Shown here piece by piece: positions 5,201 through 8,200 of a stretch of DNA of 64,000 nt; the stretch's first letter is position 1, and every line of letters starts with the position of its first letter. A model generated the notes under the pieces. The model was given only the letters and a program-made list of their open reading frames with translations. It was not told the origin of the DNA and made no database searches. The stretch comes from an uncultured Holosporaceae bacterium (GTDB lineage Bacteria > Pseudomonadota > Alphaproteobacteria > UBA3830 > CASESI01). A program made the translations under genes and the position numbers. Location: NCBI GenBank assembly GCA_949290705.1, contig CASESI010000014.1, positions 37,802 to 101,801 of the forward strand, given 5' to 3'.

Positions 5201-8200
5201 TATTTGAACTTTATCATCATTTAATTTTCCAACTGTAATATTAAGATCATAAGGAGAACTATTTTCTCTTATTTCCTTCTCTATTTCATCTTCTGTTTTT
5301 AATTGTTCCAATATTGGCTCTTTTTCAAATGTAGAATTCATTTTTATTAAAGTCATATTAACAGTACCAGGAAATTCCTGGTTTACAGCAACTAATAAAT
5401 TATGATTTTCTTCCATAAAAGAATGCAATTCGGACGTTAATTTTTCCCTTTTATCTTGATCTGTTTCTCTTTGCAATTTATCAAGCATCGATGATAAATC
5501 CTCAAGTGCAGATTTATTTGCGCTTGAATAACCGACACTATCAAACAAATCTGCGTGATTTTCTAAAATATTATTTATACTACCTGAAACATTTTTTAAA
5601 ACTGATTTTTGCTCTTCTACTTTTTTGTTATATTGGTCCAAAATTTCATTATTACGAGATTGAATTTTGGTATTTTCCTCCTTCAACTTCTCCTGTATTT
5701 CACTTTTACTAATACTAACTGCCGTATTCTTAGCATTAGAAATTTTTTCTTCTAGCAATTTACTACTTGCTTGTTCAAGTGCATCTATAATTTTTACATC
5801 ATATTTCACCTCAATTTCTTGCACCTTTGATTTAAGTCCATTACTTGTGCCATCGAGTAACTTTTGTAAATGTTCTGGATTTATGTCAGAAACTCTTCCT
5901 TCTTCTATGCAAGTTAAAATATTTTTCAAGCTTATATCCCCGAAAGTTTTATAATCTTCTGTTAATGTAATTTTTTCATTTGCAAGAGTTGCATGCTTAG
6001 CGGGTTCAACCAAATCATATTTACTTGCATACTCCGTCAACAACCCTATAACGGATACTCCGTACAATTTTTCCATATCTTTAATAGAATTTATAACACC
6101 TGGATCTTTTATAACTACATTAATCTCGGTTTGTAAGATTTTTTCTCCATTTGAGATTCTTGTTAACAAATCTGTTATTTTTACACCTTCAGGTTGAGTT
6201 TTATCTATTTCTTTTAAACAATCTCCTATAACTGAAGTATTTAAAATTTTATCAGCCTTGTCGGAATATTGTTTTATAACCTTTGAAACATCTTTTTCCA
6301 CAATATTAACTTTTTCTTCTTGAATCCCATCCTTGTTAACAATATTATCACCGACATTTTCTGTGATTGTAGGTGCTTTATATATTTCCTCAGAAGGTTC
6401 TATTCCATTTTTTGAAAATGCATTATTAATAAAATTTCCTACATTTGTACCTGAATTAAAATCGAGTTGATTTATGATTTTTAGAGCTTCATTATTACTT
6501 GCCAAAGCTTTCATCTCTTCAGGCGTTGCAGATCCATCTGCGATTTTTGATACGATATCAAACATCGATATAGTTTTCCCATCTATAGTAAAATCAATAC
6601 TTTTCAATTGCCCTTTATATTTTGCACTATCGTCCATGCTAGATGAATTTAGAAAAGCTTTAGTTTCTATCTCAGATTTAATATCATTAACTGTTTTAGT
6701 TCCTTCATTTAACACATCTGCAATGCCTTTTCCAACAAGACCTAGAACATTGTATTCATTTTCAAGTACCTCAATTGCTGACTTTATTTTTGGATCATTT
6801 AAAATATCTATATCTGCAGCACTTAATACTCCACCTGCAGCTACCGTACCGAGTAATGCAGCAACATTTATCCTATTCCCTTTACTATCTGTCTGAAACT
6901 CTAATCTGCCAGTTAATTCCTTGTTTGCCAATATTGATTTTGCAGTCTCAGTTAATTGTTGTTTTATATTATCGGCATTTTGTGCAATTTCTTTGCTACC
7001 AAGTTTCACATTTGAGCCTGAAGCATTATGCATATTGGATGAAATTGTATTTGGATTCAACATATCATTATTTACCACTTCAGTTCCGTTAATTTTATTC
7101 GTTAATGCATTTATTTTGTCTGATAATCCATCTGTTATATTTGCAAATAACCCACTTCCTGCGGCCATTGCTGTACCAGTCAATCCCAACGCTGATCCTG
7201 CCAAATTTAAAAGCGCTCCACCAACATTGTTATTAGATGTATTTTTAAGCTCTTCCGCATTTGTATTATTAGTATTTCCGGATAATTTATCATTCAAAGC
7301 ATCTGCCCCTGAAGCAAGCAGATTACTTCCCGTTGCAATTGCTGTACCAGCCAATCCCAATGTTGCCCCTGCCAACCCAGCCGTTGAAGACGCCACTGTT
7401 TTTACAGCATTTGCTATAGGTGACAAAGCCTCTTTGACTGTATTAACCTTATCAGATACTATATCCTTAATGTTATTAACAGTATTTTTTGCGGCTTCAA
7501 CCTTATCAGAAATAGATTCTTTCACATCATTAACTTTATCAGAAATGTTATCCTTAATATCAGATAGCTTTTCTTTTACATTATTCACACTTTCTGAAAC
7601 ATTTTCTTTAATATCATCTACTTTATCAGATATAACATCTTTAACACTATTTGCTTTTTCAGTGAATGAATCCTTAATATCACTAACTTTACCCCCAACA
7701 ATATCTTTAACAGTTGTAATTTTTTCACCAATAGAACTTTTTATATCACTAACATTATCACCTATTGCATCTTTTACATCATTTGCTTTTTCTTTGATAT
7801 CGTCCCAATTTGATGCAACTGCTGCCACACCTCCTGCGACTGCAGCACCAGCAACAACAGTAGCAGCGATTCCTGTTGCCGTTGCAATAGTACTTGCATT
7901 GTTTGTAACAAAATTTTTAGTTGAAGAAGCTGCATTTGAAATTCCAGCTCCAACGTTTATAGCAGCAGTAGAAATTGCAGATCCAGCATTTGATAGCTTT
8001 TCTTTCACAGTATCCCATTTAGAAGATTTTTCTGATGCTGTTTTTTCAACATCATCTAACGTTACCTTACTACTGTTCGATTTAGAATCTTCTTTCTCTG
8101 TAGATTTTGCCTCTTCTTCAACATCACTCAAAGAAACTATCCTTTTTTTTTGTTGCTTATCACTCGATTCTTGTTCCTGTATTTCTGTTGGATTAGATTT

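Follow-up and report, generated by a model that had tools for sequence, protein, structure and literature searches.

We analysed a window of 64,000 nucleotides (contig CASESI010000014.1, positions 37,802 to 101,801, forward strand; all coordinates below count from its first letter) from an uncultured Holosporaceae bacterium, and in it a minus-strand open reading frame (ORF) that codes for a giant protein of 3,119 residues. The centre of this protein combines an array of 11-residue (hendecad) repeats with Gly/Ala-rich hydrophobic helices, a layout that resembles the centre of phage tail tape measure proteins (TMPs), although the giant protein is not itself a TMP. A first-pass annotation had drawn attention to the region 7140-7990, which corresponds to residues 1213-1496, and the peptides that it quoted are indeed encoded by ORF 2267-11626 of the minus strand. 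The giant protein is identical to database protein P0008. It has two orthologues, P0002 (87% identity, locus L001) and P0010 (47% identity across 2,000 residues, locus L082); a word-index search with the whole protein retrieved only the protein itself and the 87% orthologue, and P0010 came from an exhaustive search. No match was obtained when the giant protein was scanned against GTDB representatives, and no relative was found in metagenome scans with a C-arm alignment (A1) or with the back-translated peptide EKVEEFKTEK, nor in a search of IMG/VR. The family is recorded in just three lineages of uncultured bacteria.

The central core

The ORF and the elements of its core, from the N-terminal to the C-terminal side, are as follows.

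2267-11626, minus strand: giant ORF, 3,119 residues
7085-8023, minus strand: TMP-like core, residues 1202-1514, defined by tail length tape measure PHROGs
7919-7990, minus strand: small-residue 'pre' helix, NAGSAISTAAINVGAGISNAASST, residues 1213-1236
7889-7915, minus strand: linker NFVTNNAST, residues 1238-1246, invariant across all three orthologues
7811-7888, minus strand: H1, Ala/Val/Gly-rich hydrophobic helix, residues 1247-1272 (by Kyte-Doolittle and Hessa scales)
7784-7810, minus strand: junction motif NWDDIKEKA, residues 1273-1281 (TMP consensus NWDTIKEKA)
7397-7804, minus strand: hendecad array, residues 1275-1410 (by self-similarity and hydrophobic moment)
7301-7396, minus strand: H2, Gly/Ala/Leu/Thr-rich weakly hydrophobic helix, residues 1411-1442
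7226-7300, minus strand: Asn-rich polar H2-H3 linker, residues 1443-1467
7136-7225, minus strand: H3, Gly/Ala/Leu-rich weakly hydrophobic helix, residues 1468-1497

The observation of a repeat array between hydrophobic flanks was confirmed. The array is made of seven units of 11 residues, a seven-residue skip (EKLSDIK, residues 1352-1358) and five more units, with the unit consensus D-x-[IV]-[GS]-[DE]-K-[VIA]-x-D-[IV]-K, in agreement with the roughly 12 units and the consensus given by the first-pass annotation. BLOSUM62 self-similarity of residues 1275-1410 is well above chance at lags 11, 22 and 33 (z=11.0, 9.5 and 5.7), and lags 7, 18, 29 and 40 are also prominent because of the single seven-residue phase skip. 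The helix of the array is amphipathic, with a period of 11/3, the property that the first-pass annotation had chosen as a test of its own proposal: the hydrophobic moment has its maximum at 99 degrees (3.64 residues per turn, z=7.1), above the maximum of every shuffle, and amounts to 0.30 at 98.2 degrees compared with 0.14 at the heptad angle. Within the 3,119 residues, hendecad power is restricted to windows starting at residues 1266-1343. Lysines at positions 6 and 11 of the unit flank a stripe of Val/Ile (positions 3, 7 and 10) with acidic residues on the opposite face, and this apolar stripe is narrow, taking up three of the 11 positions and an arc of about 65 degrees. The 136 residues include one aromatic residue and one proline; mean hydrophobicity is -0.15, the 22-residue moment 0.39 and the apolar fraction 33%. 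As a continuous helix the array would measure about 20 nm. AlphaFold2 predicted an all-helical core at low confidence (predicted local distance difference test score, pLDDT, 49.7), too low a value for a fold search with this model. The nucleotide sequence shows an in-frame identity of 0.55 at lag 33, where the background is 0.36 (z=6.7), and Tandem Repeats Finder reported nothing at the array, so that the 33-nucleotide period described earlier is present but weak.

The description of Gly/Ala-rich hydrophobic segments around the array was also borne out, as 61-72% of the residues in the flanking segments are Gly, Ala, Ser or Thr. The same segments had been read as membrane-inserting glycine zippers, and here the outcome was different. 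Literal GxxxG motifs number 0, 1 and 1 in H1, H2 and H3, shuffles of the same segments contain at least as many (p 0.65-1.0), and small-xxx-small motifs in the three helices show no enrichment over shuffles; the proposed G-x-x-x-G ladders thus do not exceed what composition provides. As for insertion, the Kyte-Doolittle 19-residue mean is 2.09 for H1, which passes the transmembrane threshold, 1.31 for H3 and less than 1.2 for H2, and the Hessa translocon sums are +1.6 (marginal), +4.2 and +4.0 kcal/mol for H1, H2 and H3, compared with a median of -1.4 for TMP helices. The hydrophobicity of the 'pre' helix is insufficient for spanning a membrane (Hessa sum +7.3). Membrane insertion of the flanks would thus be plausible for H1 on the first scale and marginal on the second, and H2 and H3 fall short on both; judged by hydropathy, no segment of the core other than H1 is a plausible transmembrane helix, and even H1 is a marginal one. 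A fourth candidate hydrophobic segment, at residues 1586-1606, was rejected, since it is where the C-arm repeats have their first copy and it is not hydrophobic in P0010. The latter orthologue has extra 11-mer units in place of the Asn-rich H2-H3 linker.

Resemblance to the centre of tape measure proteins

The first-pass annotation did not recognise this arrangement from any described family, but it has been reported for the centre of TMPs: the TMP of the siphophage TP901-1 has two hydrophobic regions and 29 repeats, each 11 or 18 residues long (PMC5099701). Ten PHROG families annotated as 'tail length tape measure protein' match the core and none of them matches the rest of the giant protein, the matches including phrog_1535 (E 7.4e-15 over core residues 26-319) and phrog_1272 (E 1.3e-14 over 8-320). 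Residues 1195-1530 were searched exhaustively with HMMER against 1.84 billion representatives, which gave 1,514 matches at E<=0.001, the best of which are mostly proteins of 600-1,400 residues; among the best 45 of these 1,514, PhageMin_Tail is found in 14 and TMP_3 in seven. In 74 of the best 149 matches, a hydrophobic helix ending ...LYKNWDTIKEKA... runs straight into 11-mers. The giant protein carries ...AVASNWDDIKEKANDVKD... at the equivalent position, and eight of the nine residues of its NWDDIKEKA are those of the TMP consensus, in the same place relative to helix and array. The TMP of Enterococcus phage VPE25 (LT615366.1), one of just two tblastn matches in the phage collection, has ...ILNWDDTVK..., 11-mers, a second hydrophobic region and more 11-mers, in this order.

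With the TMPs of TP901-1 and VPE25 the giant protein shares hydrophobic regions around 11- or 18-residue repeats, a hydrophobic helix ending NWD-x-[IV]-K-E-K-A with the repeats directly after it, and the prediction that the whole region is helical. It differs from them in the absence of PhageMin_Tail, TMP_3 and a tail gene cluster, in its signal-peptide-like start, in having Val/Ile in its repeats where the TMP repeats have Trp/Phe markers, in its Ala/Gly-based and much less hydrophobic helices, and in the location of the module between non-phage-like arms of about 1,200 and 1,600 residues. A further TMP, pb2 of phage T5, pairs a long predicted coiled coil with two hydrophobic helices, a stretch of about 46 residues for which insertion into the host membrane as a channel has been proposed; where its structure is resolved, at the C-terminus, pb2 forms a coil of three chains (PMC10038345). 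By its rod and membrane-active helices pb2 would be a mechanistic analogue; it differs in carrying a muralytic metallopeptidase and in being delivered through the tail tube.

How far this likeness reflects homology depends on which part of the core is compared. A hidden Markov model (HMM) built from 72 TMP junctions alone, with 300 shuffles that preserve local composition as a control, scored 27.8 bits on the giant protein (residues 1249-1286), 28.9 on P0002 and 15.5 on P0010, compared with 4.9 for the best shuffle. With the junction alone (residues 1214-1289), hhalign gave 95.9% (E 6e-9) in the forward direction and 2.6% when reversed. Several observations weigh against reading the core as a TMP-type anchoring module. 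The alignment of the three-orthologue core with 67 TMP modules reached 99.7% in hhalign (E 3e-25), but the reversed core query still reached 98.9% (E 3.5e-17), and the former value was discounted for this reason. Since the match of the array is mostly one of periodic pattern, the case for homology depends on the architecture and on the junction, some 35 residues in length. H2-H3 alone gave no match to the TMP modules (hhalign 31%). Furthermore, the array has one aromatic residue where comparable TMP arrays have 11-15, the distance of H1 (+1.6) from the TMP median (-1.4) makes insertion as a stop-transfer segment uncertain, and the AlphaFold2 model of the core is of low confidence (pLDDT 49.7). 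Taking both sides together, the unit formed by H1, junction and array is probably of TMP type by common ancestry, and H2 and H3 resemble TMP segments only in kind.

Arms and gene neighbourhood

Outside the core, the giant protein consists of the following parts.

11564-11626, minus strand: signal-peptide-like N-terminus, MKCISVIILVVLMLIRPAYTQ, residues 1-21, read from sequence and hydropathy
8045-11563, minus strand: N-arm, residues 22-1194, K/E-rich and helical, with an S/N/Q/T-rich low-complexity stretch
2477-6925, minus strand: C-arm, residues 1568-3050, with eleven helical units of about 50 residues
2792-6865, minus strand: the eleven units of about 50 residues, residues 1588-2945
2270-2476, minus strand: His-rich C-terminal tail GGHTNIA...IPTEE...HFEE...HEAARHGFK, residues 3051-3119

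P0010 begins with an analogous hydrophobic N-terminus, so that the signal-like start is present in both divergent orthologues. The N-arm evolves fast, with 25-32% identity to P0010 and dN/dS (ratio of non-synonymous to synonymous substitution rates) of 0.26-0.65, and holds nearly all of the indels between strains (residues 413-635), the exceptions being single residues at 931 and 3041. Its low-complexity region (window 9700-10400, minus strand, residues ~413-635) contains the short Gly/Phe motifs ALSGLF and NFFSGGRG, and the indels that separate close strains there are of 8, 3, 42 and 41 residues; residues ~530-700 of P0010 contain four clear repeats of the type GGxLGxxGGxFG. Neither the N-arm nor the C-arm has a Pfam or PHROG match.

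The units of the C-arm follow roughly the consensus [IV]x[IV]xDLLxKIxNGExIS...LL..D..L...I..IE...GVKI.D.LE, and six of the eleven belong to three double-unit modules of about 200 residues (residues 1782-1994, 2250-2413 and 2690-2904) that are paralogous (blastp E about 1e-13). The C-arm is 52% identical to that of P0010, with dN/dS of 0.13. AlphaFold2 modelled one of its modules with pLDDT 75.8, and a fold search of PDB and BFVD with it returned no significant match, the weak best ones being helical proteins of the sigma-factor or helix-turn-helix type. The long coiled-coil stalk in which the first-pass annotation had placed the core is supported only in part: heptad power in the N-terminal 1,194 residues is modest (maximum 0.27), and the C-terminal 1,589 residues form helical domains instead of a coiled coil. 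The His-rich tail, at 61% identity to P0010, is better conserved than any other part of the protein and could bind metal or act as a targeting signal.

The genes and loci discussed around the giant gene are listed here.

1533-2267, minus strand: ComF-like gene (double zinc ribbon and phosphoribosyltransferase)
11772-12239, plus strand: Hsp20 gene, divergent from and upstream of the giant gene
Locus L001, 9148-9854, and locus L082, 5471-6170: counterparts of the Hsp20 and DUF1150-like genes
12502-14034, minus strand: 510-residue orphan protein with a clear signal peptide, MKKLILLSLMFGGMGIVDAYASA
51781-56769, plus strand: flagellar cluster with FliK and FlgE

The window has a G+C content of 32% and its genes are those of an ordinary Gram-negative alphaproteobacterium, among them class-I lysyl-tRNA synthetase, GroEL, a Porin_4 porin, MlaE, alanine racemase, MurC, MurG, AccA, AccC, FliK and an FlgE of 896 residues. 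The GroEL is 63-69% identical to those of the assorted alphaproteobacterial species representatives that were retrieved, and an Rfam scan of the window found one tRNA and nothing else. The order Hsp20 (divergent), giant gene, ComF-like gene, DapF is conserved in the window, L001 and L082, and MiaB, a helix-turn-helix regulator and an amino-acid permease lie near the giant gene in a conserved arrangement in the three lineages; this synteny is kept between orthologues that are just 47% identical. The start of the ComF-like gene is the last base of the stop codon of the giant gene, and the gene lies downstream in all three lineages; this overlap and conserved position suggest that both are co-transcribed. 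Beyond Hsp20 there is a DUF1150-like gene of 79 residues, and the pair is upstream and divergent in all three lineages, a hint of shared, possibly stress-related, regulation with the giant gene. A scan for promoters and terminators, with sigma-70 sites sought in the intergenic region, was uninformative (55 sites compared with 57 expected). The 510-residue orphan, which has no Pfam or NCBIfam match, adjoins the pair of Hsp20 and giant gene and is syntenic in all three lineages. The FlgE hook protein of the flagellar cluster is unusually long, the models of the FlgE family having about 400-500 positions, roughly half as many.

Explanations for the core

That the giant protein is a true length ruler, serving a tail-like or tubular structure of great length whose genes would lie in another part of the genome, is a very improbable explanation and close to refuted. 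Its TMP-like core, its great length and the largely helical prediction would suit such a ruler, but the signal-peptide-like N-terminus would not, and the C-arm is built of globular helical domains instead of a uniform rod. PhageMin_Tail (PF10145) and TMP_3 (PF20155) are absent from the Pfam scan of the whole protein, a scan that detects them in the matches P0009, P0013, P0015 and P0020, and the protein is without the C-terminal motif KLPH...GEAGxE of the best TMP-type consensus. Furthermore, no tail, chaperone or baseplate genes are found among the annotated genes of the 64-kb window; the neighbours of the giant gene (ComF-like, DapF, Hsp20, permease, MiaB) contrast with the locus of the VPE25 TMP, their housekeeping synteny is kept across the 47%-identical orthologues, and the IMG/VR search had yielded no relative. 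The model of the first-pass annotation, a lipid-coating 3-11 helix with zipper flanks in an effector that acts at a host membrane or lipid droplet, we consider unlikely, although more can be said for it. The moment maximum lies at 11/3 periodicity, the charges are class-A-like, since Lys lines the border between the polar and apolar faces and the acidic residues lie across from it, and the bulk hydrophobicity, moment and apolar fraction of the array are the values computed for ApoA-I, so that binding to a lipid surface is conceivable. The low hydrophobicity of H1-H3 might also suit a protein that has to avoid the membrane of its producer. The array weakly matches ApoA-IV (E 3e-6), apolipophorin III and SHERP in PDB and the Apolipoprotein model of Pfam (E 1e-9). 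On the other hand, all Pfam matches on residues 1277-1432, Baculo_PEP_C included, are sub-threshold, and every model of a lipid-binding or hydrophilin family stays under its gathering score (Apolipoprotein, PF01442, 38.8 bits of 90; LEA_4, PF02987, 16.4 of 51.1; YtxH, PF12732, 19.2 of 37.5). The Apolipoprotein model is matched likewise by all 45 best TMP-type matches (P0009-P0054) at E<=1e-5, several of them above 90 bits but most of them below; this match is therefore unspecific, and 'Apolipoprotein' calls on phage TMPs are likely artefacts of the periodic pattern. TMP arrays share the bulk properties as well, so that these measures do not discriminate. Apolipoproteins are built of proline-punctuated 22-mers, absent from an array with a single proline and almost no aromatic residues, and are not flanked by hydrophobic helices as this array is. 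The narrow apolar stripe and the lack of GxxxG enrichment likewise speak against this model. As to a role as effector, nothing in this analysis shows it; the N-terminus is signal-like, the neighbours are housekeeping genes, and no secretion-system or effector context is found among the annotated genes of the window.

A different explanation is convergence, in which a generic hydrophilic 11-mer stress segment of the LEA, YtxH or ElaB type, provided with an anchor, would have come to look like a TMP centre by itself. Group 3 LEA proteins, YtxH and DUF883 (ElaB) have hydrophilic 11-mer helices too, which YtxH and ElaB combine with one membrane anchor. A role in stress protection would agree with the divergent Hsp20 and DUF1150-like neighbours conserved in the three lineages, LEA_4 and YtxH do match below threshold, several of the top HMMER matches are non-phage 11-mer proteins (YtxH, DUF883, EcsC and LEA_4 types), and the reversed control indicates that periodic arrays match one another whatever their ancestry. 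The junction argues against it: the test is directional and specific (27.8 bits compared with at most 4.9; 95.9% compared with 2.6%), and the eight of nine NWDDIKEKA residues that equal the TMP consensus do so at the equivalent position. Moreover, the known proteins of this type have roughly 100-200 residues, whereas the array sits in the middle of a 3,119-residue protein next to a TMP-specific junction, and an anchored stress protein would leave unexplained two huge arms that together have about 2,800 residues. Convergence alone is for these reasons rather improbable.

The selection on the protein gives a further view of the core. The lowest dN/dS values in the protein are found in the 'pre' helix plus H1 (0.054, residues 1195-1274) and in H2-H3 (0.061, residues 1411-1500), compared with 0.41 for the array and 0.29 overall, a contrast which indicates that the hydrophobic helices are constrained residue by residue and the array in its pattern only. 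This fits helices that would be tightly packed or membrane-embedded and joined by a spacer rod. The core is without indels among close strains and its layout is kept in the 47%-identical P0010.

The explanation that we favour, at about an even chance, is that the core is a TMP-type module for membrane anchoring and rod formation, co-opted from or sharing ancestry with TMPs, in a giant envelope protein that seems to be exported by Sec. According to this proposal the N-arm would be exported by means of the signal peptide, after which H1 would span or insert into a membrane with Trp1274 at the interface, the simplest target being the inner membrane of the bacterium itself and H1 acting as a stop-transfer segment. 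The array would form a straight, self-associating helical rod or bundle of about 20 nm, as is thought for TMP repeats in the tail tube, or might alternatively rest on the membrane surface, and H2 and H3 would pack against H1 or one another through small-residue contacts. The module would thus anchor and space the two arms, the N-arm outside the cytoplasm and the C-arm on the other side, and the fast evolution of the N-arm compared with the conserved C-arm would fit such a placement of the two on opposite sides of the inner membrane. As H1 is only marginally hydrophobic, the protein could equally be released and insert into another membrane.

The hydrophobic and 11/18-mer centre was already known from TMPs; what is new is to find the same layout in a giant non-phage protein, where it is under purifying selection. 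The function of this centre in TMPs is poorly understood, the proposals being chaperone binding, a metastable rod or a membrane channel. One practical consequence is that such arrays routinely draw matches from the Apolipoprotein, LEA and YtxH models of Pfam, and bacterial 'apolipoprotein-like' annotations need caution. More tentatively, and with the chances against it, AT-rich alphaproteobacteria may have captured and domesticated the membrane-insertion and rod module of a TMP as the hinge of a giant protein that spans the envelope or inserts into a target membrane; if true, a cell would here be using the very TMP segment that is thought to breach membranes during DNA injection. A module found outside any tail and kept under strong purifying selection would provide an independent system in which to study what the module does alone.

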